Made by a program: the position numbers and the translations under genes. A stretch of DNA of 64,000 nt from Marsupella aquatica (taxonomy: Eukaryota; Plantae; Marchantiophyta). The stretch lies in contig OZ316892.1 of NCBI GenBank assembly GCA_973895155.1, positions 4,734,510 to 4,798,509 on the forward strand, given 5' to 3'. Below, piece by piece: positions 2,056-63,933 of this stretch (position 1 is its first letter; each line of letters opens with the position of its first letter). The notes under the pieces were generated by a model, which searched no databases, was not told the DNA's origin, and worked only from the letters and a program-made list of their open reading frames with translations.

Positions 2056-2232
2056 GCAACAGCTGGCGATTGGCAAGTATGAGGTTGAGGATGACTACCT
2101 GCACAGAGTCACAGAACGGGAATTGCTGCCTGGAATGATGTTTAGGATAGTTGGATATGCATGAAATTGATTGATACTTTGAATTTAGTGTGCTGATTCT
2201 CCCTGTTTGGTTGTGGGTGCTGTGCAGAAGCT

Positions 2233-12380: not shown

Positions 12381-13099
12381 TCTTCCAGCTAGGGACTTCA
12401 CTTTTGAGGATCTGCAGTTTAGCTATCAGAAAAACTTGTCAGTACCTAAGTTGTCCTTATATACTTCAGCCAGATTTTTGGTATCAGAGTGGCTTCTCTG
12501 GCTTGAAGGAGACTTACGATACTGTCTAGTGCAGTGTCTCTTTTACTGCTTTTCTTCACTTAGTGACACGATCACGGATTCGTGTCCCAATATGTTTTTG
12601 AACTTGTCTAAATATAAGCGCTATTACTCATTGTATATATGTCTGATCGAGGATAGCCTAAATGGCACTAACTTCTCTATATATATATATATATTGCAGT
12701 GTGAAATGTCAACCGTCTCTCATGCTTGTCATCTTTAGCATTCTGGTTTAGTTCATACTCGCAGTACATACATTATATTCAATTGTTACAAAGGAACTTG
12801 GTACTTAAGGGAGTCCACAAGCTATATTCGTCTAGTAATGAAGTACAGCCAAATCTGACCGGCAAACTGCAAACCATTCCTTCACTTAAATGAATACAAA
12901 CTTTCAAGGAAGCAGGAGGTGCATGTAGCCTGCATCGTGACCTATGCTGTCATTTGTTAATATGTAAATGAAAAGGTCCACACAAATTTTGCAGCCAACA
13001 TTCAGACTTCATATAAAACTTACAATGATTGCCATCCAAGCCAGAGAGAGTCATCGAACACGGACATGTATTGCTGGAACTTGTGGATACATGCATTGT

Positions 13100-41576: not shown

Positions 41577-42805
41577 CAGCTTGAGGAGCGCAGGGGTACA
41601 TGAAGAGGATGAAATGATTCTCAATAGTAGCGCCGATGTCGAGAGCATACACGGGGATGCTAGAACCTAACGACCTCAAACTCACAAATTATCGAAAGGA
41701 ATCGAAGAGGAATCGACCTTATAAAATCATAGCAGAATCGTCACACAGGCCGATTGATCTGAATGCTGATCCACAAAGAGAGATTAGAATCCATAAGGAC
41801 ATCGAAGAACGATGGCCTAGCGAATGACAATCTGAACCTCAAAATCTTCGAAAGGAGATTGTGGACAGCATTTATAAGGACAGCAGGCTGAAGAATCGAA
41901 GTAAATTTAAGAAGAAGGTGAGAGAGGCGCTGGGGATTAAACGAGCGACGGCTGCTGTGCCAAAGGAAAGAAGGAACTATGAAGAGATATCAATAGCCAC
42001 TGCAGCATTTTCCATCTGAAATGAGCATTCCGTGTACGAGTGACAGGTAAGGAAAAGCGACTGGGATCGAAGTGGGAAAGAGCAACTGGAGTCTGGAGCC
42101 TATTGAGAGAAAACAAGAAAACGATCGGGAGCGAAGGAAAATTCCGAAAGAAAAACGAGAACACAACTGGAAGTCGATGCAGCAGGCTGAAAAGAAGAAG
42201 GCGAAGACAAAGGAACGATAGATAGGCACTTCTGAATCCGAGAAAGAAAGCAGCATCGAAAGGCGAAAGCAGTAGGCACAGTCGACAGAAGGTCGATGAG
42301 CGAAGGAACTGCAGCCGTGACTCAAACCGAACAAGATGAGAAGGCATAAGGACATTGAAGGCACTGAGAGCGCGAGGAGACGGGAAAGCGCAACATTAAA
42401 GACCACAAAACATCGAGGAAACCTCGAGCCCGAGTAAAAAACCGCTAAGTGCACACTGCACAACCGCTAAACCTCCTTAATTGCAAACTCAAACATAGCT
42501 TTCCAGATCACCGTGTATTTGTGTACAATTAACGACTTAACTGCAACCTTTCATAACTGCACAAGGAATACAAAGAAACCCTAAAATACAAAGGAAAGAA
42601 TGCACTTATCCAAATACAAAGGAATCTAACCAGATAAGTGCAAACCGCAAATTAAAACAAAAACCTAATAATCACCTCAAAACTAGCATATGACCTAGAT
42701 AACTTTGCATTCAATCGCTCAACCCTTCCCTACCATTGTATGCGGCAAAATGTGCATAGTCTTTTGAATACCTATACAATATATATAGCGAACTAGAAAT
42801 CCGAG

Positions 42806-43897
42806 ATGGCGAACTTAGAAAAGTTGCAATTCCCCGCTTTAGAATTAGAAGGTAGTAACTACCTTGCCTGGTCTTTAGATATAAAGACCCATCTTAAAGC
42901 CAAATCCCTCTCACGCGCCATAGAAGCCCACATTCCAGAAGCAGAAGAGGCCCAGGCATTAGTCTTTATCCGACGTCATTTACACCAATTCCTACAAATG
43001 CAATATTTGCATTTGAGCTCACCTCGAGAGCTATGGCTGGCTATCCAGACGAGGTACGACCACCAGAAACTGGTGGCGCTACCTCGCGCCAAACAAGACT
43101 GGATGAACCTTAGGGTTCAGGACTTCACTTTAGTCTCAGCCTATAACAACGAGCTATTTAGGATAACCTCTACGCTCACCCTATGCGGCGAGACAACATC
43201 CGACGATGACCTACTGGAAAAGACCTTATCCACCTTTCACTCCACAAACCTAATACTTGCGACTCAGTATCGCAACATGAAGTTTACCCAATACTCAAAA
43301 CTCCTATCACATCTTTTGGTTGCTGAACAACAACAGTTATTGCTCATCAACTCAAAGAAGCGACCAGCTGGAACCTTAGCGCCCACACAGTTAACAGAAG
43401 CACATGCCATAGAAAATGGCGAAGCTTCCACTTCAAGCCAACAAAACCCTAAAACTACTAAACAAAGTAAAGGGAGAAAACATAACAATAACCCCAACAG
43501 GGGGAGTTACTTTAACCATAGAAACCAAAGAAACTTTAAAAACCGTCCATTCAATGGACGTAAGCAACAGCGTTTCCGCGGCGGCAGATATAATAGAAAC
43601 CGCAAAGGCGGAAACTATAGGCAAAACAACCAATCAAGGAGTTTCCAACGCTCACCTACGAAACTATGCCACCAATGTGGCATGAACAATCACCTTGCCC
43701 GTGACTGCAGAATCCCAAAACACCTTAAGGAACTATATCAACGTTCCTTGAAGGAAAAGAAACAAGAAAGCACACCACGTGAGACCCATGGAACTTTCAT
43801 GGAATCTCACGACCCATTTCAGGACTTTGGCCCAAATCCTGAAACACACCTAGTTGCGTCTACGTCTACATCAATAGACCTAGATAGCCATGCATAA
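42806..43897 (+). CDS. gag: Copia Gag
   Basis: Copia Gag-like N-terminus (NYLAWSLDIKTHL, LWLAIQTRYD) and CCHC knuckle CHQCGMNNHLARDC. Confidence 0.9.
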   Translation: MANLEKLQFPALELEGSNYLAWSLDIKTHLKAKSLSRAIEAHIPEAEEAQALVFIRRHLHQFLQMQYLHLSSPRELWLAIQTRYDHQKLVALPRAKQDWMNLRVQDFTLVSAYNNELFRITSTLTLCGETTSDDDLLEKTLSTFHSTNLILATQYRNMKFTQYSKLLSHLLVAEQQQLLLINSKKRPAGTLAPTQLTEAHAIENGEASTSSQQNPKTTKQSKGRKHNNNPNRGSYFNHRNQRNFKNRPFNGRKQQRFRGGRYNRNRKGGNYRQNNQSRSFQRSPTKLCHQCGMNNHLARDCRIPKHLKELYQRSLKEKKQESTPRETHGTFMESHDPFQDFGPNPETHLVASTSTSIDLDSHA

Positions 43898-46800
43898 TTG
43901 ATAGCGGTACTACACACTCCATCCTACGGGATAGAAAGCTATTTCATAGAATCACACCCTCTAATCGCTCAATCATGACAATAAATGGTTCTAACCAGAT
44001 AGAAGAGGGCAATGGCCCAGCTTCCTTGAGGTTACCTCAAGGCACAGAAATACATATAGAATCAGCTATATATGCACCTCAAGCAACTAGAAATCTTTTA
44101 AGCTTTCGAGACTTAAGAGCGAATGGACTCCACGTCCAAACTGGGAACACAAAATCCCAAGAGGTTCTCCACATTGTTGAAGTTACACCTCTAGGAAAAA
44201 TAATAAGAGAAACTTTATTCTCGTACTCATGTGGGTTCTATCTAACACACATTGAATGCCTACACAATACAATTCAAGCCAACTCCTTGAACAAGCTATG
44301 GCATACACGCCTAGGCCACCCTGACCAATCAATGTTGAACAAAATAAAGAAGCATGCTCAAGGCATACCAAACAATATCCGCCATATTACGCTAACTACA
44401 CCATGCTCAGCATGCTCACAAGGCAAACTAATCGCTAAACCCTCATTTTCAAAATTGCCAAACAAAATACCTGAATTCCTAGCATATTTGCATGCTGACA
44501 TTTGCGGCCCGATTAACCCACCTAGCGGACCGTTCCGCTACTTTATGGTGATAATCGATGCATCAACTAAATGGTCAAATGTGACCTTACTTTCCACACG
44601 CAATTTAGCCATACCCCGCATTCTAACGCAGATTTTGCGCCTGAAAGCACAATTCACAGATCAACCCATTAAGACATTGCGCATAGATAATGCGGGGGAG
44701 TTCACATCATCCACTTTCGATGATTTTTGCACATCACTTGGTATTGATATTCAATACCCAGTACCACATGTCCATTTTCAAAATGGATTGGCTGAAGCAA
44801 TTATCAAGCGCCTACAACTAATAGCACGCCCCCTTCTAATGCAGGCACAACTACCTGTTACTGCATGGGGCCATGCTATCTTGCATGCTAACGCATTAAT
44901 ACAATATAGGCCATCTGCATTTAATGATTATAGTCCTTACCACCTGAATAATGGTAGACAACCTGACCTAACCCATCTTCGATCGTTTGGATGTCAAGTT
45001 ATGGTTCCCATAACTCCACCCAAACGAACAAAGATGGGACCCCAACGACAGTTGGGGATTTATGTCGGATATGACTCTCCGTCAATTATCCGATATTTGG
45101 AGCCTACCACAGGTGATCTTTTTAAGGCTAGATTTGCAGATTGTCATTTTGATGAAAATATTTTTCCTAAACTATATAACCCTGACACAAACCCACCACC
45201 ACTTTTGGAGTGGGAACGCACTTCCCCATTTTGGGAAGATATTAGAACAAATCAGGGGGAGAAGGAAGTACAACGCATCTTACAACTCCACAAGATAGTG
45301 GAGGAGTTACCTGATTCCTTTGTGGATACCACACAGGTAACTCGGTCGCATATTCCTGCGGCAAATGCACCAGCGAGGATCCAAATTCCAGTTAATATAG
45401 CTGGAACTCAACAACCTCGACAAAAACGAGGTCGACCTCTCGGTGCAAAAGATAAACAACCACGAAGACGACCTTCGTCTACACCTAGTTCACCACTCAT
45501 TACTTCGAGCTATTCTCCAAGTAACGACGAAATATCAATCCATTACACTCATTCTGGTGAAATCTGGGACCGACAAGTCACCATCACAAATGAATGTTTC
45601 GCATCCATGGTTGCTAAAACCATTACGGATGAAACACCAGAACCATTAACCATTATAAAATGCCAGAACAGGCCTGACTGGCCTAAATGGCAAGAAGCTA
45701 TTAATGGAGAACTTGATTCTCTATTAAGTCGAAACACATTCGGCTCAGTGGAATTAACACCACCAGATGTCCATTTAATTGGATATAAATGGACCTTTGT
45801 CCGTAAACGTAATGACAAAGGACAAGTTGTCCGTTATAAAGCCCGCTTAGTCGGGAAAGGCTTTACTCAACAACCTGGTATTCATTATGATGAGACCTAC
45901 TCACCAGTAATGGATAGCATAACTTTCAGATACCTTATTAGTTTTGCAATTTTTCATAAACTAAAAATGCGACAAATGGATGTCGCTACTGCATATCTTT
46001 ATGGGACTTTGGACACGTGTATTTATATGCGTGCACCACCAGAATTAGAAGCACGTAAGCGTGCTTTAGCTCAAGGAGCTAAATCCCATATCCCATATTT
46101 ACATAAGCTCATTCCAACATCATCTAATTCTTCTACTAATGTGTCTAACACACATTCTGACACCACTGTGTCCACTGTACGGCATACCCGCCGTGGACTA
46201 GCTATCCACGTGTTGAAGGCTCTATATGGCCTTAAACAAAGTGGCAGGGTATGGTATCAAAGATTTACCGATGAGATGATATCCATGAGATTTTCCTATG
46301 ATGCTATTGCACCATGCTTATTTATTAAGCATGTTGATGATGAATTTGTCATCATTGCGATCTATGTTGATGATTTAAACATTTTTGGCACTCCAAAAAT
46401 TACTGAATATACCATCACCACTCTAAAGTCCACTTTTGAGATGAAAGACCTTGGTCAAACCAGTTTTTGCTTAGGTTTACAACTCGAAATCTTGCCAACT
46501 GGCATGTTATTGCACCAAACCACATATACTGAAAAAATCCTGAAACAGTTCAACATGCACTTAGCTCATCCACTGACATCACCAATGGTAATCAGATCCT
46601 TAGAAAATAGTACTGATGTTTTTCGCAAATGCGAAGAACATGAACCAACCTTAGGACCTGAAACACCTTACCTTTCAGCTATAGGTGCACTTATGTACTT
46701 AGCTAACCAAACTCGACCAGACATCTCATTCGCAGTAAACCTTTTAGCAAGACATAGCGCAAATCCCACCTCACGCCACTGGAATGGCGTTAAACACATA

Positions 46801-47367
46801 TTCCGTTACTTACGTGGACACACAGACACGGGATTATTTTTCCCGTTTAACTCTACACATGAGATTGTGGGATATGCTGACGCTGGTTATCTTTCAAATA
46901 CCGACACTGCAAAATCTCAAACAGGATACGTCTTCCTTAGTGGAGACACAGCTATTTCTTGGAAGAGCGTTAAACAAACTTTAACAGCTACATCTTCTAA
47001 CCACTCCGAAATTTTAGCTCTTCATGAAGCTAGCCGAGAAGCTATATGGTTACGATCACTAATAAACCACATACAAGTACAAAGCGGCTTCAACGGCCTA
47101 ACTCAACCTACTAATATATTTGAAGACAATGCAGCTTGTATTCAACAGATCATACGAGGATTCATTAAAGGTGATCGTGTGAAGCATATCGCACCAAAGT
47201 TCTTTTACACTCATGAACTACATGGAAAAGAAATCAATGTGATACAGGTAACAAGCGAAGACAACTGTGCTGACCTATTCACCAAATCGTTGACACCAAC
47301 TATTCATCAACGACACTGTCATAAGATTGGTCTTCGGAGCTTACGCAAGATGATGTCAGAGACTTGA
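43888..47367 (+). CDS. pol: Copia Pol (protease, integrase, RT, RNase H), intact
   Basis: The frame is open from 43888: CIIDSGTTHSI (PR); LWHTRLGH..CSAC, HADICGP, RIDNAGEF, QNGLAE (INT); YKARLV, MDVATAYL, LYGLKQSG, YVDDL (RT); YADAGY, EDNAAC, ADLFTK (RH). Confidence 0.95.
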   Translation, partial: PCIIDSGTTHSILRDRKLFHRITPSNRSIMTINGSNQIEEGNGPASLRLPQGTEIHIESAIYAPQATRNLLSFRDLRANGLHVQTGNTKSQEVLHIVEVTPLGKIIRETLFSYSCGFYLTHIECLHNTIQANSLNKLWHTRLGHPDQSMLNKIKKHAQGIPNNIRHITLTTPCSACSQGKLIAKPSFSKLPNKIPEFLAYLHADICGPINPPSGPFRYFMVIIDASTKWSNVTLLSTRNLAIPRILTQILRLKAQFTDQPIKTLRIDNAGEFTSSTFDDFCTSLGIDIQYPVPHVHFQNGLAEAIIKRLQLIARPLLMQAQLPVTAWGHAILHANALIQYRPSAFNDYSPYHLNNGRQPDLTHLRSFGCQVMVPITPPKRTKMGPQRQLGIYVGYDSPSIIRYLEPTTGDLFKARFADCHFDENIFPKLYNPDTNPPPLLEWERTSPFWEDIRTNQGEKEVQRILQLHKIVEELPDSFVDTTQVTRSHIPAANAPARIQIPVNIAGTQQPRQKRGRPLGAKDKQPRRRPSSTPSSPLITSSYSPSNDEISIHYTHSGEIWDRQVTITNECFASMVAKTITDETPEPLTIIKCQNRPDWPKWQEAINGELDSLLSRNTFGSVELTPPDVHLIGYKWTFVRKRNDKGQVVRYKARLVGKGFTQQPGIHYDETYSPVMDSITFRYLISFAIFHKLKMRQMDVATAYLYGTLDTCIYMRAPPELEARKRALAQGAKSHIPYLHKLIPTSSNSSTNVSNTHSDTTVSTVRHTRRGLAIHVLKALYGLKQSGRVWYQRFTDEMISMRFSYDAIAPCLFIKHVDDEFVIIAIYVDDLNIFGTPKITEYTITTLKSTFEMKDLGQTSFCLGLQLEILPTGMLLHQTTYTEKILKQFNMHLAHPLTSPMVIRSLENSTDVFRKCEEHEPTLGPETPYLSAIGALMYLANQTRPDISFAVNLLARHSANPTSRHWNGVKHIFRYLRGHTDTGLFFPFNSTHEIVGYADAGYLSNTDTAKSQTGYVFLSGDTAISWKSVKQTLTATSSNHSEILALHEASREAIWLRSLINHIQVQSGFNGLTQPTNIFEDNAACIQQIIRGFIKGDRVKHIAPKFFYTHELHGKEINVIQVTSEDNCADLFTKSLTPTIHQRHCHKIGLRSLRKMMSET

Positions 47368-50300
47368 CTGGAGCTATTACCACTATCAAAATTTTCAAAC
47401 TAATCATGAGGATCACAAGACTGTACTCTTTTTCCTTTAAGAACTATAGATTTTTCTCTACTTGCAAATAGAGTTTTTATATTAAGTTACTAAAGGTTTT
47501 AACGAGGCAGTCACTACTACATATTTGCCAATTTTGCGAAGGCGTTTTACAAGAGGAAGAAAGCTTTGCAAGATTAATCTCATCGCTAAACTTGCGATAC
47601 GATACGCATCGCACTTAGCGAATCTACACACATCGCAACACATAATTGCGAAACTTAGACCATTGCAACATTTTATGACACTTCAGGTATCGCAAAACAT
47701 TTCCGAAGCAATTACCATTGAACAAGTTAGCGATCTTTACCGCTTCGCAAATTCATTGAGATGCGCCGGAAAACTAAATGGTTGCGAATATTTAAGCATC
47801 TCAAAATATTTTGCGAGTCTTATTGTCTCGCAAATGAGCGATGTTTGTGGAATATATGGCTAACTTGTGATAGTAATAGGCTCGCAAATCCTGTGCCTGT
47901 CTAGGGTCTCATTTTGTGAATGTTTTGGTTTCGCAACTTTGAGATGGTGGTATCTTCGGAAGTTTGCGATGAGGGGATGATGGCAATTAGGGAGCAGTTA
48001 AGTATCGCAAATGTAGCGACGAGTTTGCGGGTGTAGGGGTTTCGCAAGATGTTTCGCAAAATATTATGAGCGCTTCAAAGAGGTGGAAAAGGAATGGGAT
48101 TGGGGAGGGAGGGTAAAGGAGGGTGGATACATGTAATTTTTAGGGAGGGACAATGAAAAGGAGGAGGAAGGGAATGGGGCTAGGAGGGACAAGGAACGGA
48201 GGGATCCAAGAGGGAGGATACAGGTTTAGGGGGCACAAGGAAATGAGGGAGGAGGAAGGGTATGTAGATATAGTTTTAGGGAGGGTTTGGATTTAGGGAG
48301 TGAAAATAAAAAGGAGGGAGTTTAGGGTTTAGAGAGGGACAAGGAAAGGAGGGAGGGTATTGGTTTAGAGAGGGACAAGGAAATGAGGGAGGTTTAAGGG
48401 TATAGGTTTAGGAGGGAGGAGAGAAGCTAGGTTGTATAGGTAAGAGTGGGGGACAGGGGTGGAAAGTAAGGAAATTATAGGGTTGAAATAGAAAGCCAGG
48501 GGTTGGGACAAGGAGAGGAAGGAGGAAGGAGGGTTTAATAAGAGGGACAGACAATGAAAGAAAGGAGGAGGGAGGTGGGTACAAGTAATAAGGAGAACAG
48601 CTAGGGGGGGATTAGGAAAGCATGGAGGATAGAGGACTACAAGCAACATGAGTTTTCTTTGCATAAAGTCTACCAAAAGGTGTGGTGAGTGTGGGGTAGG
48701 GATGGGAGATATAGAAAACAACATTTGAAAATGATATACTTACAAAACATAAGTTTATTGATAATTGAGAAGCACATATTTCTCCATTCTACCGAGAAGA
48801 GAAATCTTCATATCATCAAATCTAACTATATATCCGTGTAGCTATATATCCACAAACACAGACCCCTCAAACTTGGTCCTCATCATCTTCAGGTTGGGAC
48901 ACAACCAGAATATCAAGCTTTTCCCCAACGATTGAACAAGACCGTGGCACATATGTGATGACAAGTGACCATTCCTCTAGGTTTGGGGGGTATGGAATAT
49001 AGAAACATTGTTCCACATGACTTGGAAAAGTGAACGGCTCTGATGTTTGCCAATGAGATGGCTGGAAACTAGTGGCAGACGTCTTCAGTCGTGTAAATCC
49101 ACACTCATCTTGAACCACAGTAGGATTGTTACCTGCAAGGTTCACTTTGAACCACTTGCACTTGAAGACATACTCTTCAAACTTTGATTGTGCATCATAA
49201 GATATCACTAGAATCTCTTCTACCTTTCCATAATGTGGCACAACATCTCGAATAATATTTGTGTCATGGCGACTGCTGCGGGAATCTTGAGAGAATTGTC
49301 CTTGAACTCCACAATCAAAGGTACGACCCCTCTTCTCATCAAGGGAAGAAATCCTAAAATCCATCAAACCATAAGGATATGTTACACAAAAATAGACACA
49401 AACATATTCCAATTAATTGAACACACCAAGAATCTGCCTCTTCAATATACGTGCTTGTATTACAAATGAATTAAATTAAACCAAGTGATTCAAATCAAAG
49501 GTTACTAAGGTAGATGGAGATCACCTGAAATGTCTTCCTTGTGTCCACATTGCTGTCCTTGTTGTAACCACTCTCAAGGGACCATGAACAATGGTACGAA
49601 CATCATCTGTGATAGCCGGAAAATGTAATACACTCTCTCCCCTGACCACCATGTCATCCACCTCAACTAACTTCTCCTTCATATAGTCAAGGTACTTTGG
49701 AAAAATCCTTGGTCTTGTGCTGTTACTTTTGGCATCCTCATAGAAATCCCTCCATTCTTCCATGATAGTGTTGTTACTCAACATGAATGTGGTCAGTTGT
49801 TTCACCTCCACTGGTGTCAACATGCGAGTTTTCCTAGCACCTGTTAAACGATTCTCTTCATCTTCCCTCTCCTCTACCCAAGTACGGGGAGAGGTACAAT
49901 CAATTGTGGCCAATATGTTACTACAATAGAACATACTCTCAGCTGCTAAGTATCCTGTAGCCATGCTTCCCTCAACCCGTGCACGGTTACGTACATAACC
50001 TTTTAACACTGCCATGTATCGTTCTAGCCAATACATCCACCGACAATGCACAGGACCTGCAATGGCCACCTCATGAACAAGATGAACAAGTAAATGCACT
50101 TGACAGTCAAAAAAGGAAGGAGGAAGGGCCTTCTCCAACTTGCATACCACCTCTGCTGCCAAAACCTCCATCCCAGGGATCTCATCAGTATATATCTCCT
50201 TAGAGCATACCCATCTCAATAGTTTTCCCAATGACCAAAGGGCATCTTGCACTTCTTCACTTGCCAAACCTATTATGGCCATAGGCAATATGTGCTGCAA

Positions 50301-52079
50301 TAACCTATGGTAGTCATGTGTCTTGAGATACCTTGGCCACTTATGATTGTCCTCCATCCCAAAGGCCTTTCGGAGATTGGCACCATAACCAGTAGGAAAC
50401 CGCATGTCTCCTATGCGATTCTGAAACTCCCTTCTCTGGCCAATAGGAAGCACCCATGGAGCTGAAGGTCGATGCTCAATCCCTGTGATAGGATCACTTA
50501 TGACCCACATGTCTGGATGCATCTCAAGATCCTCACAAGCCTCCCTGAAGTTAGTGTCTTTCTCTCCATAGAAAGCCTTTATCAAAGCCTTTCTCACATT
50601 TCCCTCAATGTGCATGGGGTCTAATAGATGGCGGATCTTCAACTCACCCCAATAGGGCAAAGTGGTTAATATACTCCACCTTGTCAAGCCACTACCGTCA
50701 AATTGCATGGGATCCTCTGGGTCTGCCACTCTTGCAGCCATGTCTTTCCAGTGTGTAAAAGTTGTTGGCTCAGGTACATCACGCTCGTCACCAAAGGGCA
50801 TATCAATAGAGGAAAATAGTAGTGGGTCACGCCTCATCTGATGTCCCATTGGAAGAAACTTTGTATGCCCAAGATAAACAATCTTGCGAAGATGTGATGA
50901 ATACTTGGCTACATCACCAAGGCTTGGGCCACAAGTGGAGCAAGCCTTGTAGCCTTGGGTTTGCAACCCACTCACAAAGCCAAATCCTGGTCATATAAAC
51001 ACACATTATGTTAGGATTAGCACATGGAAATGAGGGGATACCATGCATTAGAATATGATGCATTTAAACAATAAAGTTCTTACCTGGGTAGTCATGCATG
51101 GTCCACATACAAACCCCTTTGAGTTTGAAAACCCGTGGGGTACCCCCTGTAGTCTTTCGACCATCATATGCCCATACTCCTTCCCATAATTTCTGGAGTT
51201 CCTGAACCAGTAATGTCAAATAGGTGTCCATGTTCTTCACCTTCTTTGGCCCTGGGATAATCAAAGATAGCAACAAAAAACCCTTTTTCATGGACAACCA
51301 TGGTGGAAGGTTGTAATTCATGAGAACCACAGGCCAGACCGATGTAGGTCTCCCCTTCCCTCCAAGTGAATGAGGGCTAACTCCATCTGATGCCAACCCC
51401 AGTCGCACATGCCGAGGGTCACGCTCAAAATCTGGCCATGTTGATTCCACATGTTTATGAGCAGGAGAGTCAACTGGTAATCGCATGACACCGGGCTCCA
51501 AACGATGTTTCTTGTGCCATACCATCAACTCGGCCAAGTCAGAACATCTATACATGTGCAACAAGCGAGGAATTATGGGGAACCAACGAACTGCTTTCCT
51601 TGGTACCTTCTGGGTTAGCCTCGAGGGTCTCACTATATGGAGGACCCCCCCATCACCTGCGACGTTTTCATGCCTAGACCCCCATACTTATTAAGTTGAA
51701 ATTTTTTTTCCTCCCTCTTTCTTTCTTCTAAGAGTCTAAAATCCAAATTGTATTGCCCCTATAATTTGTGAAGTAAAGTGTCACATATCAATATAAAATG
51801 CCTAGAAAGAAAAGATAAGTCTATGTCAGTACCTTGTGAAGTCGTATGTCAGACATGGCACGCCCTGCAACAGTTCTTGCACCTTTGTCGACCTTAAACT
51901 TTGATCATTTCAATGCATCATTTATATTGTGTACCTAAAAGGTCATCCCAATATAAACCTTACGTGCATAAGTGGGATGGCCTTTAAGGTCACAACATAA
52001 ATAATCCATTCCACCCATTGATCACCAATCCCATGCTCCATCCATACTCCATTTAAAACTTATGTTGAGAGATGTAACA

Positions 52080-52139
52080 TGTGACGGAGGGGAATTGAAC
52101 CCCTAATTGAGAAAGGATCTCAAGTTGCCAATCCGTCAC
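52080..52139 (-). ncRNA. Compact tRNA-like structure lacking a D-arm, 3' of the transposase
   Basis: Minus strand reads GTGACGG ATTGGCAAC TTGAG-ATCCTTT-CTCAA TT AGGGG-TTCAATT-CCCCT CCGTCAC A: a 7-bp acceptor-like stem, a 5-bp stem with 7-nt loop, and a T-arm. Function unproven. Confidence 0.4.
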
Positions 52140-52265
52140 CCCCTATCCTATCCCACTACACCCACTAATATTAACAAAATAAAACATATATACAGACTCT
52201 CAAAAACTAAACAACAAAATAAAACATATATACAGACTCTCAAAAACTAAACAGTAACATGATAT

Positions 52266-55200
52266 TCATACCATTGTTTGAAGATACTGATCCAAAGCAC
52301 GTCTATCTATTGGATCCAACACATAGATACGATCCATAACCCCTTCTTTCATGGTTAAACTAACACTAGCAATGACCATTTCAATATCCATCCATTTCAA
52401 ATCAGTGGTATCATATCTGAATTCACTTTTGCTCTTACCAATAGGACTATACCAATTTAACAACAGTTCACAAATGTTACCTGATTGCCCTGCAAGTGGA
52501 GTTGGCCTATCCATCAAATCAATTGGTGACCGACAATTGCCCCACCTACTGCCATACTTCTGTCTCATTTGGACAATCCAACCCAACCAAAAATATTTCT
52601 TACCTATTGAGATTGCCTCCACCACAACCTTATTCTTTCCTCCCTTTCTTTTTCCAGATCTAGTACTTGGAGCAGGACTATCATCAGACTCAAATGCAAT
52701 TGCACAATCAGTGCCAACATCAACAAAACATGAGTTAGGATTGACTTCTTGCACTTTTCTCTTGCCAGTACTATAGTATATCACTTGTTTCACCCTTGTC
52801 AGCCTATCTTTTGACAAATGCGGATTTCCTACCAACTGGCTTACCAGAGTGGATTTGTAAATCACCTTGCCTTCATAAGTAACAGTAGGCACTACCTTGG
52901 TACGATTCTGTACATTAGTTACAGCATGGACAACTGATCCAAACACATGCCGAACTTCATGACCTAATGTCTCAAGCTCATCTGAGGGGTCTACATCAAA
53001 CTGTATATCATCTCTGTGTACATCATCTGAATGCATCTCAGGAACAACAATGGGATCTGGTTCTGTTAACCATGCATCTATTCTATTCAGATCATCCTCA
53101 GGATCTTCCAATTCATGAAAATCTCCAGTTGGGCGAGGACCTATGTCTGGTGGTTGGTGCTCTACTTGCTCCTCAGAATCATTGCAAACAATTGCTTCCT
53201 TCAGAACCACCTCTAGTGGCCAGGTCTCACTTTCCACAACCCAAGGACATGTCCACCATCTCTTTCTAGCTGCTGGTAAGGAACTTCGTGGAGACATCTG
53301 CAATTGATGCATAAGATCCTTAGCAGCAACAAAACCTTCTTTAAGGGCTGCAACCACTAATTCATTAGTCTCAATGAGAGAATAGTCAAGTAGATTTGGT
53401 GCTTCCTCCCCTTCCCCTATAGGATGAATCTTCCCCCATACATGATCTTGTTTCTTATGTGAACGACCTATCTTCAAGCCTTCTGGTCCATATTCTAGGG
53501 CAACAAGCCGGTTCAGTCCAACAGCACTATCCAACAGAGAGCCAAAATCATAATTCCGCTCATGGCCACTCATGCCTCCTACCTTGCTGAAGAAAATCTC
53601 ACAACAATCTGAACCTAGCAAGTGGAAGGGAACACCTAGATGTGGGAACTTATCTCGAAAGGCACAAATTAACAGCACAATGAAATGACATGACATGTTA
53701 ACATCATGAAAAGCCTGAATAGACATCATGTCTTTCTCAGTGTGTGCTGCAAAGTTCCCACCCACTGAATGGTCACCAAACCTCAACCACAATCTCCACA
53801 AACGTAGAAAGAATGAAACCTTGGATGCTAACACAATACGGGACCTCAAATCATGAACTGGAGAAAAGAAAATATCTAAGTAATCTGCACAAATCTCCAA
53901 GTACAACTGAGTTCCTAAACTTCGTTCATGTTGTACATCTCTCCTCTCATACATATCTTTCAGACATTGCTGCACTCTTCTTGCTGCTATTCGTTGTGGA
54001 CCTGCCCAATTCTGCCGGTCAGTCCTATTCACATCATCCCAAGCCATGCCATGTTCATGAATTGGATAATGATTGTAGACATTAGCTACATAAGATAAAG
54101 ATGCATGTTGATCTCCTAGCACCAGTAAAGAAGACACTCTGTCTAAGGGGTTTATCATCTTTTTCCCATTATGAGGTTGGTCTTGGTCACCAAAGCCATA
54201 CAAATCTCCATTTGGTAGAATTGAAACAGAGTATGTCCACCCTTCCCACCCAACTCCGTACCTTGGGTATGATCCATTCTGCCCTCTGTAATCTTCCAGC
54301 ATCAGCTTTCGGCGACGTGCATCACCATCACTAGCATGTCCAAGCAAAGGGCCTACCATAGCTCTACAATATTCATCCCAAAAAGCCTTTAACTGGACCC
54401 AATGCTCTCGTACCCAAGAAGCTGTGAACTTATTACAAGTTGGAAGTGCACACACAGCCAATTTAGGTAAGGACTCATGCAGAGGATTCACAATCACAAC
54501 TCGGGCATACATGCACTTGGGGCATTGTTCAAATGTACTTACAATTTTATCATACCCCTCATCACCTTCACCAACTAGAATTTCCAAACCATAGGAGCAT
54601 ACATGCTGCTCTGAAGGTCCACAGAAACCAATGAGAGTATCATACTTTGCCTCCCACCTGAAACACAGACATGCAATTTTTCAATATCACAGCAATTCCA
54701 GCCAAGTGCTACTTGTAAAGTCATTAAAAAAACAATTGGAAAAATGTCCAGTTCCAATTACCTAGGGCGTTCTTTGATCCTTGTTTCATCCTCAGCAAAG
54801 ATAACAGGCACATCCCCCTCAATGCCCAATGAGTGCTTTGCAGCAAACAACACTCTAGCAATCTCCTGAAAGGTTTCCTTCCGTAACCCGGTTCGAAAAG
54901 GTGTGAGTTTTGCTCTATCACGTTTTAGGGTCACAAGGCTAGGGGCTGTCAAGTTTCGTGCAAAACAATGAGCAACTTGACGGCCCCCAAATTGGAACAT
55001 AGCCTGAGCAATAGCTCGAGTCCTATTACTGTAACGATTACCTTTTGGCTTCCTGCCTAAATTGCGAGCTACATCCTTCAAGAAATCCCACAAACCCTCC
55101 TTACCACCAAATGCACCATTCCTGTGTCCATTCAAAATACTCCTAAGAAACAATCTCAAATCCTTCCTGTCTGCTGCAACTCCTAACAACTCCTCTAGTT

Positions 55201-56842
55201 TTCGTTTCCTGGTGCTCAAGGCACATACTTTCTGAGCCTGCAAAGCTAACAACCAACGCTCTTTTCGTCGCACAGAGTTCAGGTTGTGCACTTGATCTCT
55301 TAACTCTGTGTTGGTCAAATAATCCAAACGTATACCACCAGCAGTGGTTCGGCTCCCTCTGTGGACTACTGCTTCCGCTTCCCTGTGCACCCGTCCACGA
55401 AAATCATCTTCTAGTGTTATAGAATCACATTCACTACAAGTTAGATTTTCAAATCCTCCTCCATTCTGTGATAACCTCAAGCAATCCTTGTGTCTAAAAC
55501 AGCCTGCTATACTCACAACACTCTCTCTACTTGGATGGAAAACATCCAAGCAACAACTTGGCTCACAATGCCATGTAATTCCCCCAGACTGATAATCTAA
55601 AATGCCAGAAATATCATAAGATATACCCTTCCATAACAGTCGAGGCACACCTCTCTCTACCCATAATCCCCAGCAAAGCAAACTCAGACCAAGATCAACA
55701 GATTCACACACACCTGAACCTGAACCTGAACTGCTGCCTGTCCGGGACCCATCATCTTTAAAGAACTTCAAAATCCCGCTCTGACCAGGATGTAGGTCCC
55801 TAGAATCAGTCCTCTTTGGCCTGCCCCTCTTCCCAGACCTCAAGGCAAGCATTTTTGTGTCATGCCTAGTCTCCAATGCATCCAAGTGATCTCGACTCAC
55901 TAAGTGTGTCCTCAAATTGGGCTCCAAGGTAAGCTTCTTGGGGCACAAGTCAGTGTGAAGCATTCCACAGACAGTACAGCGAACCTTAAACAGGAAAGAC
56001 CTGTTTACATACTCAGGAGTACTGGGATCAGGAACAATAGAGAATAGTTTGCCATCATCCCCAAGCTCAGCATTCAATCGCTGAACTATCTCAACACCTA
56101 CTTTGATGGCGTCTGCATGATCATATTCTGGCTTCTCAGAGATGTCTGCTACCTGAACCAAAGTAGAAGGAATGCCCCTTCTCCGACAATAGTTATCCTT
56201 GTGCTTATTGAAGACCAAGTGTTTGGTCTTAAAATTACTAAAGCAATTGGAGATGGATTTAGGGTTCTGAGAGTTGTCTGCATTGCCATAAGTTTCCCTA
56301 CATTCAAGACACTCCAGATGCCCTCGAACATCTGTCCCCTCATCCCAGGTACGAATTCTCCAATTGTGATCACCATAACCCTTCTTATGTACCCATTTCT
56401 CTAACCTCATCCACTCATCTTTCCATAGCTTTGATGGGACATCTCCCATCAATTGTGACTCAAAAGAAGCCCTTACAGGGGAGGGTGCTAGTGCTGTTGG
56501 CCTCAGTTGTGGTGTCTCAGTATTTGGACCCAATGATGCAGGAGTGCAAGGATGACAGGGTACTGGTGGGATCCTCCCACCATCTCCAAGTTCTTGTTGT
56601 ACAACAATAACTCTTCCATCCAGCTCAGACAGATCAATTAATTTCTCATGTACAAGTTTCACTCGACCAGGAAGTCTCTCATCCCAAAAATCGAAGTCAA
56701 AGTCTAGAGTAGAGGCAATACGAGCCCTAAAATCATGTAGGGTGTGTCCTTCTTTGAATGACAAAACACAGATTGGTAAATCAGCCTTGTCATCCCCAAC
56801 TTTGCGTATTAATTTAACAGAGTTGGGTTTAGGGGCTGCCAT
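52266..56842 (-). CDS. Intact ~1490-aa DDE transposase, P-element-like, 2 exons
   Basis: Exons 56842-54762 and 54657-52266, with a 104-bp GT-AG intron, join as ..IFAEDETRIKERPRWEAKYDTLIGFCG.. Then HASDGD, DQPHNGKKMINPL (DxxH), DRQN and SDCCEIFFS. Two C2H2-like fingers in the N-terminal half. Confidence 0.8.
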
Positions 56843-57341
56843 TGCAATACAAATCTAGAACATGCATAGCACCATTGCTTTTGGAGTCGATAACAGAAAG
56901 ACCTGCACAAATACATTTGAAATACACACAAGGGAAACACATTAGGATCTTCAAGAGATGCAATGACAACATACACATTCTCATGTCAGTAATGTACATA
57001 ATGTCAGCATACATTTAACAATAGAAGTGCTAATAGGCCAAAACACTTTATAATGCAATCCATCATACATGCAAATGTATTCAGTGAAAATCATGATATA
57101 CCGTTAAAGTTGGATAAAATATCTTTAGAAAAAATATCCTTTTTGCCTGGTTTTCTAACAATTCTCGAGGTTTAGTGCTTTTGCTCATCAAAATGCAGCA
57201 CTATTAGTGACCGTAATTATGACAAAATGTCAACACTAATAAAATTGGGTACTACCACCCATGATGCAGCTTAAGTATATGCCTTGCTCATACCCCACTA
57301 AGACGTTGAAACCTAAGTAATAGGTTTGTTCATTATTCAGA

Positions 57342-58091
57342 TCACTGGAGCCATGAAATGTGGTCCCTGATTGGAGTCTTCAGGTGTGGATCAATAGGAT
57401 GACGGGGGCAATAAAACATCTGTCGCTGTTGTCCATGTGCTTCATGTTCCCAGATGTCCCTATCATGAGCAAACCCTTTGCTTTTGATCATCTGGAGACA
57501 ATCTGTATGCCAGGCATTTGGACATCGTAAACATTGTACCATGTTCTTGACCATCTGACCCTCAAGACTCTGATAACATGTCACACATGTATGCAGTGGG
57601 CAGGACTTTGCAGCAGCTACCAAACACCCAAAGCAATAAAATCGTACACAAAAATGATCAGAGCATTTTCGCACAATTGTAGGTGACGGTCCCACAGTGC
57701 GGCACCCATAACACATGGCCTGGTCCTGGTTACAATTTGGGCAAAACCATGGCTTCCCTCCATGATGGAGGGGAAGGACTACACAGGGGCAAGAGTCATT
57801 AGGGGCTTCATCTCCAACCACATAATGAAATTGCCTGTGACATGGCCCATCACAAATTACCAACTTCCCACCATGCTCACAAATTGCACAAACATGAGGG
57901 CTGGTTTGTAGAATCTCTTGCTCAGAGAACAAGGGAATACACAATACCTCTTCTAAAGAGGACTGTGTTGCTTTCTTTATGTTTGAAGTCCTTGTCGGCA
58001 TGGTTACAACTGAAATCATCACAAAGCACATCACATATGAGAGGGACATGTATGATACTGGGCAATCCATAGAACTTGGAGAAATCCACAT
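57342..58091 (-). CDS. EDM2/NSD-type atypical PHD-finger array, stand-alone and intronless, carried by the transposon
   Basis: VCAICEHGGKLVICDGPCHRQFH..CPNC..CYGC..C..C..CPLHTCVTC..CLRCPNAWHTDCL..IWE..YCPRHPIDPHLKTPIRDHI follows the plant EDM2 PHD region as recalled, including the tail YCxxHxIDxxLxTPxRDH. An alternative ATG lies at 58001. Confidence 0.8.
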   Translation of the reverse strand: MWISPSSMDCPVSYMSLSYVMCFVMISVVTMPTRTSNIKKATQSSLEEVLCIPLFSEQEILQTSPHVCAICEHGGKLVICDGPCHRQFHYVVGDEAPNDSCPCVVLPLHHGGKPWFCPNCNQDQAMCYGCRTVGPSPTIVRKCSDHFCVRFYCFGCLVAAAKSCPLHTCVTCYQSLEGQMVKNMVQCLRCPNAWHTDCLQMIKSKGFAHDRDIWEHEAHGQQRQMFYCPRHPIDPHLKTPIRDHISWLQ

Positions 58092-58343
58092 TTGAAGTAG
58101 TTACAAACCTGCTCCAATGATCTGCAAACCTCCCTCCCAGATGAAGTCAACTACACAGTGCAGCCTGGACACCCACCAACCAAGACATACATAAATACAA
58201 TGCCAGATTGCGAAACTTTGCCACATAATGGGAATGAAAATTATTCTCATATATCATGGATGGTACAATTGCAGCCTTGCAAACAAAGGCCTAGTCATCC
58301 CGGACCTCAAGTCATGAACAACGCATCCATGTACTATCAGGGA

Positions 58344-58742
58344 CTACAATGTCAAGCATCCATGGGCTGTAACCTTAGCTTGACCTGGAATACTATCTGG
58401 GGCTACAATATCAAGCTCAGTTATATGTGGAATACTATCTAGGACTACAATGTCAAGCGTGTCCGGGATGACAATCTTGCGTAAAAGACACTCATTTTGA
58501 GGCCAAATGGTTGGCCTTATACAAGAGCACCTCCAGCGACGTGTGACAACTTTGCCATGCTTTCCCATGTATGTCCTAGTAACAAGTCTTCCACGCATTT
58601 TCAAGTAGAAGCAATGGAACCATTCAAAATTGCCATCACCAACCCTGCACTTCACACAAGATTCGCACCAGCAGCATTCATCTGGATGCTGCAAAAGGAG
58701 CTTCTCATAATTCGCTTCTAATGTAATGCCCAATTTAGCCAT
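58344..58742 (-). CDS. Small Cys/Trp-rich hypothetical ORF inside the P-like element
   Basis: ATG-initiated 132 aa with CCWCESCVKC..WFHC..WRCSC. No family recognised; its 3' end runs into short repeats. Confidence 0.25.
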   Translation of the reverse strand: MAKLGITLEANYEKLLLQHPDECCWCESCVKCRVGDGNFEWFHCFYLKMRGRLVTRTYMGKHGKVVTRRWRCSCIRPTIWPQNECLLRKIVIPDTLDIVVLDSIPHITELDIVAPDSIPGQAKVTAHGCLTL

Positions 58743-60879
58743 GGCACTATTTTTTTTACTCGGTGAATGGCCAGGCGATCAGACGTGCAATGACAGGCAA
58801 CTTACAATTCACTAGGTACAGTATGTGCTCTAGCAAACTGCTTCACCGCAAGTGCTGGTGCTCACAGCTGCAAGCACTGATTGCTTTTGCAACCTGTGAA
58901 CAAAATTAAAACCACCAGTTCAATAAGTTTCAAATGCTGCAAGCGCTGAAGACAACCAATTGGCCATGATGCATGTTACGACAGCAATAAACAAATAATT
59001 GGGCTCAACAGACCTGAATAGCTAACCTGAATAGCTAACCTGAATAGGATCATGGACCTCTCATAGCTATGGTGTCCTTCCTACATTACACATTGGTCTA
59101 ATTTATGCAGTGTTTCACTATGATTGTGTTCCATAGAAGAGCATCCAATCTGGCTGACCATTGGAGGAAGCTTGGGCTGGGTCATAGCTACAGCAATTAC
59201 TCCTCTGCAAATGCTATTTGTTGGTAACACATGTTTACTCATCAGTAGACGAATGAAGCATCTGAGGTTTTTGAAACTTGTGCTCTGATGAGGGAGTGAG
59301 TGACGTGGGAGCCATGATAATCATAGATTCAGTGCAAAAGCAAAATCCATGCTCAAAGGCAAACGTGGAAAAATTGGGTATATGTTCTTCACTGCCAAAG
59401 CTTCTGTTTGCGCAACAAAATCCACGAAAGGAATGAAGGAACAAGGGGGAACTCCAGACTCAAGAGCCTCAATTGCTGCATTGTGGAAACGCGTTGCGTG
59501 GGAGAAGTCGTTGGCTTGTAGAAGAAGTAAAAGTGTGCTGGTGAAGGATTTTGTGGTCGGGGTGCATCATAAGGTTGACACAGAGAAGAGAGAGGTGTGG
59601 AGAGGCGAGGAGAGGAGTAGAAAAGTAGGAAAGGCCGTGTAAGGCAGTCGATAAAAAGCGAGTTAGGTTTGGAGTGTCCTCTCGACAGCAAAGGATTTCG
59701 TGTGTGCTGAATTTGTTGCTGGTCCAAATTCCAGGAGCCAGTCAGTAACGGAATAGTGGAATTTTGGGAATAGCAGATGCTCATCAGTCGCAGCATCTGC
59801 GTATGTTTTGTCATCTGGGGAGAATTCAATGAGGTTTGTGGTTTTGGGGAAGGCTGCTGTGAAGAGTTTGTGTTCGTGTGGAGGGATTGGTGGCAAATTT
59901 TGATTGGTGCAGGGCAGAAGAGATGGGAGAGTGACAGGATGTGGAGATCGGTTGGCCGTAACCAAGGCAGCGCCAATGACGACGAGGAGCGCGAAGAGGC
60001 AAAGGCGGAGGAAGATGAGGAGGTAGAAGAACCAGACCACCAAATAGAGAATTTACTACATCAAAGACACTACAGAGATGAGCGCATCAATGGGCTACAA
60101 CATATTCAAGTGCGGATCCCTTTTTTGCAATCAACTCACGGAAATAGAGGATTTACACTTACTTGCCCCACCACAAATCATTCTTGGAAGTGTCTTCCTT
60201 GACAACACGTTTGTCCTTCGGAGATCGGCCAGTTTTCGCCCCGGAAAGCGTGGCAAGAGCCCCTGTCCAGGTGATGTACAAACTCTTCTCGTGCTTCAGA
60301 GCCTGTTCGTAAAGCGCTGCAAAGAGAAACGGCAAAAACTTTAGTCATTATAATTGAATCAGAACATGGGAACAGACAGAGACAGCTTCCAAACGCTCAA
60401 CTAAATCCTGAAGCAACAACCATGACGATCGCGACCCGTATGCGGCGAATGGACACAGCTATGCTAGGACAGGACACAACGAGAGGGCACCGATCACCGT
60501 ATCTAGAGAGCTGATTTATTCGTCTCCTACAAATCATAAGTCGCACAGTAGAGTTTCTACGCATCTTAACGTAGGAACGAAGGTAAAAGGTAGTTTTTTT
60601 ACCAGGCATCCTTGGAAATGAAAGCAACTTTTGAACTATCGACATGATGTGACAGAGTACAAGAAAGGCCTTCAGTGCATGTGAAACAGAAATGCTAGAA
60701 CTACTCATGAGTTCACATGAAACACAATTCCCCGGTCTAACTACTTTCAAATCTCGATGGGCAAATCTAATGCATATGACTTGCGCAAGCAATGTCTATG
60801 GAACACATCGGCTACGACCGCTACCAGATAAGGTGTGCCATGCGTGGTACATATGGGCTTCAAACAGTAGCAAGCAAGC

Positions 60880-61840
60880 ATGATTGAGCGTCAAACAATA
60901 GCAAGCAAGCAAGCACGATCGTCAAAGCAGGAAGCGCCCACCTCCTGGTTGAGCAACACAGAAATGCTGGCAGCAGCCCTGGCAATCCTGTTTGAGCAAG
61001 CAACAATGCAACACTCTCGCTCCCGTTTCAGCAAGCTAGTAGCTCCCGTTTCAGCAAGGTAGCAGCTTCCGTTTCAACAAGCAGCAACGCCACACTCCCG
61101 GCACCCACCTCTTGTTTGAGCAGCTGCAACGCAGCACTTGCAACAGCCACACTCCCACCCGCACTCCCTGTTTGAGCAACAACACAGCAGTCACATAAAC
61201 TTTCCTATCATTTCAGCAACAGGAACGTAGCACACTCCCTCAACCAAGACAATAGCGCACCTATACACTCCAACCTTGCAGCGCAACACTCTCGCCTAAT
61301 CCTTCATTCCCGGGTTCACTCCAAGCAGCAGTGCAACCAAGAAGTCTCGCTCTCCCCTTTACTCTAAGCAGCAGCGCAGCTGAGAAGTCTCGCTCTCCCC
61401 TTCACTCTAAGCAGCAGTGCAGCTGAGAAGTCTCGCTCTCCCCTTCACTCTAAGCAGCAGCGCAGCCAAGAACGACCTTGATCCTTCACTCCCAAGTAGC
61501 AGCGCGCAGTCGAGAACTCTGGGTTGATCCTTCACTTCAAGCAGCAACAGCAGCAACGCAGCCGAGAGCGCAACACTCTCGCTCTCCTCTTCACTCCAAG
61601 GCGCAGCCAACAACTCTCGCTCGATCCTTCGCTCTAAGCAGCAGTGCAGCCAATAAATGTTGCTTGATCCTTCACTCCAAGCAGCCGTAGCAGCAGCGCA
61701 GGCGAGACCACAACACTCTCGCTCGATCCTTCTTCACTCACAGCCGAGAGCACAACACTCTCGCTTGATCCTTCTTCACTCGCATCCAAGGTCACAACAC
61801 TCTCTCTCGATCCTTCTTTGCTCCAAGCAGCAGCACACTC
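60880..61840. repeat. Degenerate GCAGCA / CACTCTCGCTC minisatellite near the 5' end of the P-like element
   Basis: Many variants of TTCACTCYAAGCAGCAG..CTCGCTC, about 40-50 bp apart, most regular at 61320-61830. Confidence 0.75.
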
Positions 61841-63245
61841 GTTTAGACCCCCGTTTACACCATTTGTTGCAAGGTACAAACAAAAGAGTCTCTCATCCCA
61901 AACAGCGGGTGGGGCCAAAGGGATATTGGAGGGAAATGACACGGGAGGAGACTAACAAGGGCGGCCAATTGAGGAAACTAGACATGTTAAACGGAACAAT
62001 TTCAAACTTAATCCCACTCAAACCCTAAACGTGAGTCCCCAAAAAACCAGACCCACTTAAATCATTCTCAAATTAGAATCCATGTTAAAATAAACATGAC
62101 TTAGGAAAATATATTGAGAATGTTATGTGTGCCATGTGTACCAATGATATAGTGACACGTGTAATTTACATAGTCCGACACAAAGACCCCCTAACTTCCT
62201 TGTATGCCTTCCATCTACATAGTCAAAAATATTAATATCCCTATTATTCTTACAAGTTGTCCAACATATAAAATTGACCCTATTGTTCTTACACAAATCT
62301 TCTTAAGTCTTCCGAGAAACCCAATTAACGGACCCTATACTTAGTCGCACGTGATATGAGATTTTCGCGAAGTGAGACCCCCGAGGGGTTAGCATGTTTG
62401 GCTCATACCGTGGCTCATGACACACTGTGCATTCTGTGATATGGGCTGTATCCCCGTGAAATAACATGCAATCATTCACACAGGCATGAATAATATGGTA
62501 ATCCATACCAATGGATGAGAGAACCTTCTTTGCATCCTTCCAGGTCCCTGGCAACACATTCTCCGAGGGTAACATCAAGTCATGACAATATTCAAATATG
62601 TCTGATAACATAGAATTGCTTGTCTTGTGTTTGGCTTGAATGTTCAAGAGCCCCAATATGGCAGAAAGACGGCTCAACCGAGCACCCTCAAAAATAGGTT
62701 TTCGAGCATGTTCCTCTGCCTCTTTCCATTGTTGTTGTCCCTCTGGAGTATGTTGTGGCCGTGGGTCATTTGAAGGGCCAACCTCATGACCAATGTGAGG
62801 CACATCATCCTCAACATTGGCACCAAACCAATCAACCATGAAGTCATCCATGGCTCTATCTTGATCATGCATGACCTGGTCATCAGTCCGAGGTGCGGCT
62901 TCCTCATCAGCACCACCTACATCATTACTTGATGAGGAATCACCCTCTGATGGTTCTCCCTCTTCTGGCATACCCATCTCCCGATATGTTGCTCTCAACC
63001 TTCGTGGTAACATTTGTTGAGATGGTTGCGCATTCTATGCATATTACAACCAAAAAACCTCCTCATGTATATTTGACCAAGAACAACAAATTAAAATAGA
63101 CTTAACACCATTCATTCAAGACATTAAGAATTAAAGTAAATGCATGGGCTAAAACCTTATTACTCCAAAATGAGCCCAAAGGCCATATATATAATAGTAA
63201 ATGGGAAGTCCAAAATAGGTGCAAGAGGATAAAGGACATGATTTC

Positions 63246-63933
63246 CTAATCCCACTCATAGTGTGTGAATAACTCATCTCCTGCTCTAATGGTCCTAGTA
63301 GCAAGAACTAAGCAATAGTCCTTATGATATGTCGTGCCATATGGTGCCGGCATTGGACCATCAGTAAAAACCCACTCACAATTGGCCCTACGTTTGGGCC
63401 GAGTCCCCACTGTACTATTTATGAAACCAGCAATATTCCCATTACGTATGGGATCACCATCTATCACCCGTTGCTCACTATACCTTCTAGTGCTACCATC
63501 AAAAGTATCCATCTCTAGAGCATATGTTTTCCACTCAGGATGTTGTGCAAGGATCATGTTCCAATGTCTTCTCTTGTAGATGGGTCCACCGTATGGGAAC
63601 AAAGTAGGACCCTCTCTACCACGAACACTTGACCCACCCTCCTCATCCATGATGATATCCTCACAAGCAAATACTCCATATCCATGTCTCTCCAAGTGTG
63701 GAAGTTTTCACAATCCAACGTCTACCCCAAACCACAATCTCCTCATCAAAATCTGTAAAATAAGGCAAGCCAAGAGTGATAGGTTCCCAATCCTTGATGA
63801 TAGAGGCACACTTGCCAGTGAATGAACAAACACCCCACCTACCCTGAACTAGTGTTCTGGATGGGTCATTGGGTGCTCGTGGCCTCCTGTTGGATTGGGG
63901 CCTGGACCGGGGTCTTCGTGTCTCAATGGGCAC
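63246..63933 (-). pseudogene. SET-domain gene upstream of the CACTA transposase, one frameshift
   Basis: RWIVKTSTLGE [frameshift in GAGAGA at ~63690] HGYGVFACEDI..LFPYGG..YALEMD..IDGDP..NIAGFINS..ANCEW..VLATRTIRAGDELFTHY gives the SET motifs GxG, (R)FINxS and ELxxxY. Confidence 0.78.

Follow-up and report, generated by a model that had tools for sequence, protein, structure and literature searches.

The liverwort Marsupella aquatica harbours a P-type DNA transposon that carries, upstream of its transposase gene, a second gene encoding a stand-alone array of PHD fingers, which sequence comparisons indicate to be under purifying selection and which may serve the element as an accessory chromatin reader. 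The element lies within the window, the whole 64,000-nucleotide stretch that was analysed (contig OZ316892.1, positions 4,734,510 to 4,798,509), and all coordinates given below are window positions.

The element and its transposase

A search for pairs of terminal inverted repeats (TIRs) and target-site duplications delimited the element at 51620-62385 (10,766 bp), with 15-bp TIRs that match at 14 of 15 positions (51620-51634 at the downstream end, 62371-62385 at the upstream end) and a perfect 8-bp duplication (51612-51619 and 62386-62393). In-silico excision of the element together with one duplication restored the reading frame of a host CACTA Tnp2 gene (49521-63013, minus strand; Transposase_21 and DUF4218 by Pfam), which the element splits, and the empty site was present in contigs of three of the four runs (X1, X3 and X5). 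The host CACTA starts at approximately 47512, about 145 bp past the end of a Copia pol ORF; the Copia-type gag and pol ORFs (42797-47367, plus strand) are free of internal stops. The nested setting recorded by the initial annotation is thus real, with the P-type element inside a CACTA that follows a Copia. No further TIR copies with two or fewer mismatches were found within the window, and the palindromic 14-mer was not seen at the target site (4/14). The 8-bp duplication and short TIRs are those of the P superfamily, whose elements are described in the accessible part of PMC7776569 as generating 8-bp target duplications and as encoding a THAP domain and an insertion that binds GTP. The initial annotation made no mention of the P-element type.

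The transposase is encoded on the minus strand in two exons, from an ATG at 56842. Exon 1 (54762-56842; ORF, Pfam and alignment) contains N-terminal domains without a Pfam match and the first catalytic Asp (D685), and is followed by a predicted GT-AG intron of 104 nt (54658-54761) that was seen spliced out in none of the four runs. Exon 2 (52266-54657; alignment and homolog model) contributes the second Asp and the Glu of the triad, the DxxH motif, the insertion domain and a C-terminal barrel that is BAH/Tudor-like by a weak structural match. When spliced in silico, the two exons give a protein of 1,490 aa with no stop, which carries the complete DDE triad and the DxxH motif. Over 39 aligned rows, the first Asp was conserved in all 27 rows with a residue at that position, the second in 37 of 38 and the Glu in 32 of 32; the DxxH motif was likewise conserved. 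Searching with exon 2 recovered 54 homologs, many of them from Riccia sorocarpa and R. fluitans (the best 46-50% identical), whilst the others included one from the fern Adiantum and a weak match in Daphnia. Variants listed for the transposase (n = 19) comprised 11 synonymous and 8 non-synonymous changes.

Fold was assessed through an AlphaFold model (pLDDT 76) of an intronless homolog, P0189, which is 41% identical to exon 2 of the window. This model matched the Drosophila P transposase (6p5a) with a Foldseek E of 1.8e-11 and a VIA Z of 25.6 (rmsd 3.7 A over 410 residues), RAG1 being next at 8.6, and on this predicted structure the transposase is a member of the P-element superfamily, with an RNase H core and a P-type insertion domain. 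At the sequence level the support is weak, with PF21787 detected in two of 32 members at an E of 0.012 or worse, no Pfam match in either transposase ORF and no match of the transposase profile to PDB sequences. The C-terminal 150 residues of the P0189 model resemble barrels of the BAH, Tudor and chromo types with Z values no higher than 7.2, which chance arrangements can also reach; the barrel region (approximately 52290-52720, minus strand) is covered by 11 of the 54 homologs, and the extreme N-terminus of the transposase is common to four. A Pfam search found no THAP domain in exon 1, and THAP domains are given as not present in plants in the accessible text of PMC7776569. Several Cys/His clusters occur in the transposase N-terminus of about 680 residues (54762-56842, minus strand).

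The remainder of the element is uneven in its composition. Observed/expected CpG was 0.23 in the PHD ORF and 0.23-0.32 in the transposase, compared with 0.65 in the segment at 59000-60700, and the depletion of the PHD ORF, being like that of the transposase, suggests long residence in the element. In X1, X3 and X5 the contig depth of the PHD ORF was about that of the transposase and that of 59000-60900 far lower, a hint only since depth is not copy number; depth of the latter was low in all four runs. This segment (59000-60900), with its limited CpG depletion and no Pfam match, is likely a recent addition that is missing from most copies, and is probably neutral. Short ORFs across 58347-60795 (12 pieces) reached at best a Pfam E of 0.28; these include a Cys-rich open frame of 144 codons upstream of the PHD gene (58347-58778, minus strand), without a Pfam match, in a region that carries indels in other copies. 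Beyond the segment, at the upstream element end, a repeat scan revealed subterminal tandem arrays (60860-61818) with periods of 31, 23, 43, 43 and 42. A 28-nt inverted match (86%) links 60723-60750, inside the P-type element, with 19038-19065, which resembles a CACTA end.

The PHD gene, its boundaries and its relatives

The initial annotation had described an intact, intronless, Cys/His-rich ORF within the TIRs, co-oriented with the transposase and about 500 bp upstream of it. This description holds for the ORF at 57342-58091 (minus strand), which is Cys/His-rich, is open over 249 codons with no internal stop and ends 499 bp before the transposase ATG (spacer 56843-57341, minus strand). Its extent, however, needs revision, in that the protein probably begins at the second Met (58001), giving 219 aa (57342-58001, minus strand), and the first 30 codons (58002-58091, minus strand) are probably leader or intron. 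This start is indicated because five of the first six homologs (213-225 aa) begin at the second Met, the sixth having an unrelated extension; a splice-acceptor-like site (58010) lies 8 nt before it by motif scan; and some copies have lost 1 bp between these Mets (at 58006), which disrupts the 249-codon ORF and spares the 219-aa ORF. The predominant base at 58013 in X2, X4 and X6 renders this acceptor canonical. Alignment upholds the absence of introns for the coding part, whilst a spliced 5' leader is likely. Motif scanning of the spacer detected a second acceptor-like site at 56903, which precedes the transposase ATG by 60 nt, together with a poly(A)-signal-like hexamer from 57334.

The predicted product is an EDM2/NSD-type triple-PHD protein with a basic N-terminus and an EDM2-type C-terminal cap (Pfam, alignment and model). 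Pfam identified PHDvar_NSD (E 6.8e-8, above its cut-off), whilst three other PHD models fell short of theirs. As initially noted, the ORF stops directly after the finger module, one residue beyond it, and lacks both the N-terminal RFD, which is present in angiosperm EDM2 rows, and the methyltransferase-like tail; the protein consists of reader fingers throughout, with no effector domain. Its model (pLDDT 89) found its best structural matches in PHD arrays, many solved with H3, and these matches are weak (best E 1.4e-4, Z 5.5).

With 31% identity, the protein aligns to residues 224-432 of Arabidopsis EDM2; the alignment takes in the C-terminal cap, where the protein ends. It is likewise 31% identical to Marchantia Mp1g03210. 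The proposed EDM2-type identity stands in respect of the cap, whose motif was present in 9 of 12 stand-alone proteins and 22 of 25 EDM2-family rows and in none of 7 outer rows, and whose identity was 39-44% to EDM2 groups against 21% to NSD-like rows. Finger-core identity, by contrast, was 33-36% to every group, EDM2 and NSD-type alike. Against PDB sequences the profile of the PHD family matched NSD2 alone (E 1.4e-8), and the best VIA match of the model was the NSD2 PHD-C5HCH (Z 5.5). Since the core is equally near to NSD-type arrays and an NSD-like sister is retained in AU tests, it is the cap that ties the protein to EDM2. A quick tree (70 rows) placed the stand-alone proteins as sister to short liverwort paralogs (SH-aLRT 86), and a mixture-model tree (44 rows) gave their clade no supported position relative to EDM2 and NSD-type arrays; rows were hand-picked from 164 full-module matches, and AU tests rejected neither a liverwort sister (p 0.40) nor an NSD-like sister (p 0.51). 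The short liverwort paralogs were considered as the donor and were not upheld by the mixture-model tree. Six of these paralogs form a clade of their own (97/99).

The initial annotation proposed that the element had captured only the reader module of a longer gene. In Marchantia, Riccia, Calypogeia, Physcomitrium and Ceratodon, all eight short EDM2 paralogs examined from liverworts and mosses (P0015, P0016, P0018, P0019, P0042, P0054, P0047 and P0100) end 3-47 residues past the module in their annotated gene models, whilst long forms with tails occur in Marchantia, Riccia, lycophytes and angiosperms. Truncation by the element therefore need not be assumed, because bryophyte paralogs natively stop after the module. 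The gene possibly originated in an old capture from an EDM2-family gene, perhaps a paralog already devoid of the methyltransferase tail.

A profile search of 1.84 billion representatives returned 522 matches, of which, among the best 150, the top five were short proteins (166-245 aa), followed by EDM2-family proteins. Stand-alone relatives are 39-81% identical to the PHD protein of the window, and 12 of them form one clade (support 100/97 in the careful tree). Scanning of metagenomes yielded four loci, two being family members and two NSD-like SET genes. No transposase match was found on the contigs of the two members, which are short (1.5-1.9 kb), and linkage of PHD gene and transposase was observed in the family of the window alone, where one X5 contig bridges 53740-57277. 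A word-based search for longer fused PHD forms returned one CHD-like protein alone, the PHD profile matched none of the 54 transposase homologs (best E 0.36), and no PHD relative was found on viral contigs. That the stand-alone family consists mainly of host genes, one of which was taken up by the element and owes its constraint to a host function, is suggested by members at 39-50% identity with no transposase linkage seen. We regard this as highly improbable, in that the top stand-alone matches looked up derive from Logan, JGI or ENA/NCBI contigs and bear no plant-genome annotation, CpG depletion is transposon-like and, the two metagenomic loci with DNA are each disrupted, one by a stop and the other by a frameshift, in the manner of transposable-element copies.

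The ORF is neither confined to this copy nor evolving neutrally, two outcomes that would have told against the initial annotation. It was covered in X1, X3 and X5, fully in X2 and X4 (30/30 bins each) and partially in X6 (25/30) and X7 (6/30). From the 41 variant rows, 40 were considered and 39 fell inside the 219-codon ORF (21 synonymous, 18 non-synonymous), with no stops, no change at a conserved zinc ligand and an additional in-frame 15-bp insertion. The resulting pN/pS was 0.22-0.34 (binomial p 5e-6 to 7e-4 for an expected synonymous fraction of 0.21-0.28), for rows that were pooled across runs and are not all independent (one contig holds 13 of the differences), that could represent alleles instead of paralogs and that include one probably stemming from an unrelated 60-bp piece. 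Across seven stand-alone proteins at 44-81% identity, 65 columns were invariant. These patterns indicate that the PHD ORF is under purifying selection rather than neutral cargo. A reading as passive, Pack-like cargo with no role for the element could draw on related transposases that have no detected PHD partner and on the probably neutral recent segment in the same element. The low pN/pS, frame-preserving insertion, intact ligands and invariant columns argue against it, as does the nearest host gene being merely about 31% identical, and we judge it highly improbable and, on this comparative evidence, largely refuted.

Candidate roles of the PHD protein

The finger surfaces of the stand-alone family have been remodelled. 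All 32 host arrays have an acidic residue in the five positions preceding the first Cys, and none of the 12 stand-alone proteins does; all 12 retain Asp51, after the first beta strand of finger 1. In finger 2, the His of 31 of 32 host rows (the other being a gap) is Cys in all 12, and the loop that follows is shortened to seven residues. According to the accessible part of PMC3214078, AIRE and BHC80 engage H3 with two Asp residues, an N-terminal one for unmodified K4 and one closing the first strand for R2; UHRF1 lacks the K4 Asp and engages H3 via R2. By position, Asp51 appears to correspond to the H3R2-binding Asp. The initial annotation had pointed to the reading of H3K9me2-marked chromatin by EDM2. 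With the acidic residue lost and finger 2 remodelled in 12 of 12 members, that specificity is not transferable, and loss of the acidic residue could even abolish H3 binding entirely.

The reading we favour, with not quite even confidence, is that the PHD protein is a selected accessory reader that would bind both H3 tails and the transposition complex, and so bias or license insertion in chromatin. Expressed from a spliced leader, the protein would bind the H3 tail through the Asp retained in finger 1, K4 reading being changed or relaxed because the upstream acidic residue is gone. It would also contact the transposase or the element ends, bringing the transposition complex to nucleosomal DNA, and the result would be an insertion bias toward TE-rich chromatin. 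Which mark accompanies silencing varies from one bryophyte to another (PMC10952607). An all-reader protein with no effector domain suits an adaptor, and for one of 219 aa selected beside the transposase, adaptor or competitor is the simplest role. Complex prediction for the PHD protein and transposase exon 2 was uninformative (score 0.01). Counting against the adaptor reading, the nested insertion is a single case within a TE-dense window, and gene linkage is shown for one family. The second gene also looks optional, since no named stand-alone match came from Riccia, where related transposases are many, and since the Drosophila P transposase functions without a second element-encoded gene (PMC7776569, accessible text).

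Should the module instead have lost histone reading, it could have become a DNA- or protein-binding accessory subunit, acting for example on the subterminal repeats in place of THAP. The altered residues of fingers 1 and 2 and the cut loop are in keeping with such a change, as are basic N-termini, frequent among stand-alone proteins, and the lack of THAP in this element and in plants (PMC7776569, in part) together with the presence of subterminal arrays. We nevertheless consider it quite unlikely, given that the finger-1 Asp is invariant and that transposase exon 1 has Cys/His clusters of its own as possible DNA binders.

The protein might alternatively aid expression by occupying the silenced chromatin of the element, competing with host readers, or shifting RNA processing past its own poly(A) site to the transposase. 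According to the accessible part of PMC7529245, EDM2 associates with H3K9me2 and acts together with ASI1 and EDM3/AIPP1 to keep transcripts from being polyadenylated at proximal sites. The layout fits a switch of this kind, with acceptor-like sites before both ATGs, the first of which is more canonical still in most copies, a poly(A)-like hexamer behind the PHD stop and tandem arrays at the upstream element end. These sites for splicing and polyadenylation, however, were recognised by motif alone and were not evident by eye at like positions in L001 and L002. Furthermore, all 12 members have remodelled fingers, and the absence of the non-PHD parts of EDM2 (RFD and tail) leaves no evident basis for recruiting a processing complex. 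A precedent is VANC of the VANDAL MULEs, an accessory transposon gene that probably derives from a captured host chromatin factor, MAIN (PMC13547354, in its accessible part), and the initial annotation had proposed a VANC-like countermeasure. That likeness is weakened, in that VANC is an unrelated protein which recognises its own elements by DNA motifs and causes family-specific hypomethylation (available portion of PMC13317346), whereas this pure reader has no such domain evident and would have no sequence specificity for its own family. An anti-silencing role appears to us somewhat unlikely.

Parallels with known systems and neighbouring elements

P-type elements are best known from animals and, to our knowledge, are rare in land plants. 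We found no description of them in bryophytes in the accessible literature (most subscription journals, Repbase and supplements being outside its scope), and the accessible part of PMC9985172 makes no mention of P elements in bryophytes. An accessory transposon gene from an EDM2-type reader was likewise not found described within the same limits, and PMC13621724 names EDM2 solely in its reference list. The element shares with the Drosophila P element and THAP9 the fold of the catalytic core and insertion domain (Z 25.6) and the D/D/E and DxxH residues, and with the Drosophila P element also the 8-bp duplication, short TIRs and a transposase intron. Unlike the Drosophila P element, it measures 10.8 kb rather than 2.9 kb, has TIRs of 15 bp rather than 31 bp, lacks a detected THAP domain, carries some 600 extra N-terminal residues and the C-terminal BAH/Tudor-like barrel (Z 7.2, a weak match), possesses a second gene and resides in a plant host.

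As for the PHD protein, Arabidopsis EDM2 and its bryophyte paralogs (Mp1g03210 and Physcomitrium XP_073391891) share the finger array, the C-terminal cap and 31% identity over the module. It differs from EDM2 in lacking the RFD, acidic tract and methyltransferase-like tail, in being transposon-borne, and in the altered residues and shorter loop of its fingers. NSD1/2/3-type arrays resemble it in the NSD2 profile match, equal core identity and best VIA match, but they lack the cap motif, and the protein has neither SET nor PWWP domain. Generic NSD PHDs are as near to the core as the other groups are, whilst the cap sides with EDM2.

Pairing of a chromatin- or DNA-reading module with a transposition enzyme is known from the RAG2 PHD, the Myb partner of Harbinger and chromodomain integrases. 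PHD fingers are also found within Rehavkus transposases (PMC6446971, accessible part). The RAG1/RAG2-type, Rehavkus and Harbinger systems resemble the present element in joining such a module to a DDE transposase, but belong to other superfamilies, the reader here being a separate ORF made of an EDM2-type array alone. If the PHD protein does steer or license transposition, it would offer a small, separable handle on chromatin reading by a cut-and-paste element, as well as a naturally altered form with which to probe the binding targets of the EDM2 finger array. It is a doubtful though live possibility that early-diverging land plants host a two-gene P-type lineage in which an EDM2-family reader taken up long ago, its histone surface rewired, has become a subunit devoted to reading chromatin. 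This plant counterpart of the RAG2 PHD would work with the BAH-like barrel of the transposase and might be switched against the transposase by alternative splicing or polyadenylation.

The surroundings contain further elements. The host CACTA has a SET-domain ORF (63246-63650, minus strand, the frame being open from approximately 63704; Pfam SET E 3.5e-5), co-oriented with Tnp2 and about 230 bp upstream of it, an arrangement it has in common with the PHD gene and the P-type transposase; there is one chromatin gene in each of the nested elements (SET in the CACTA, PHD in the P-type element). Elsewhere in the window lie a second CACTA-like element with Tnp2-related ORFs (239-5404, plus strand) and, at 10689-18626, what we take from its motifs to be a Mutator-like element, with transposase-like ORFs at 13100-14817 and perfect inverted repeats of 89 nt.
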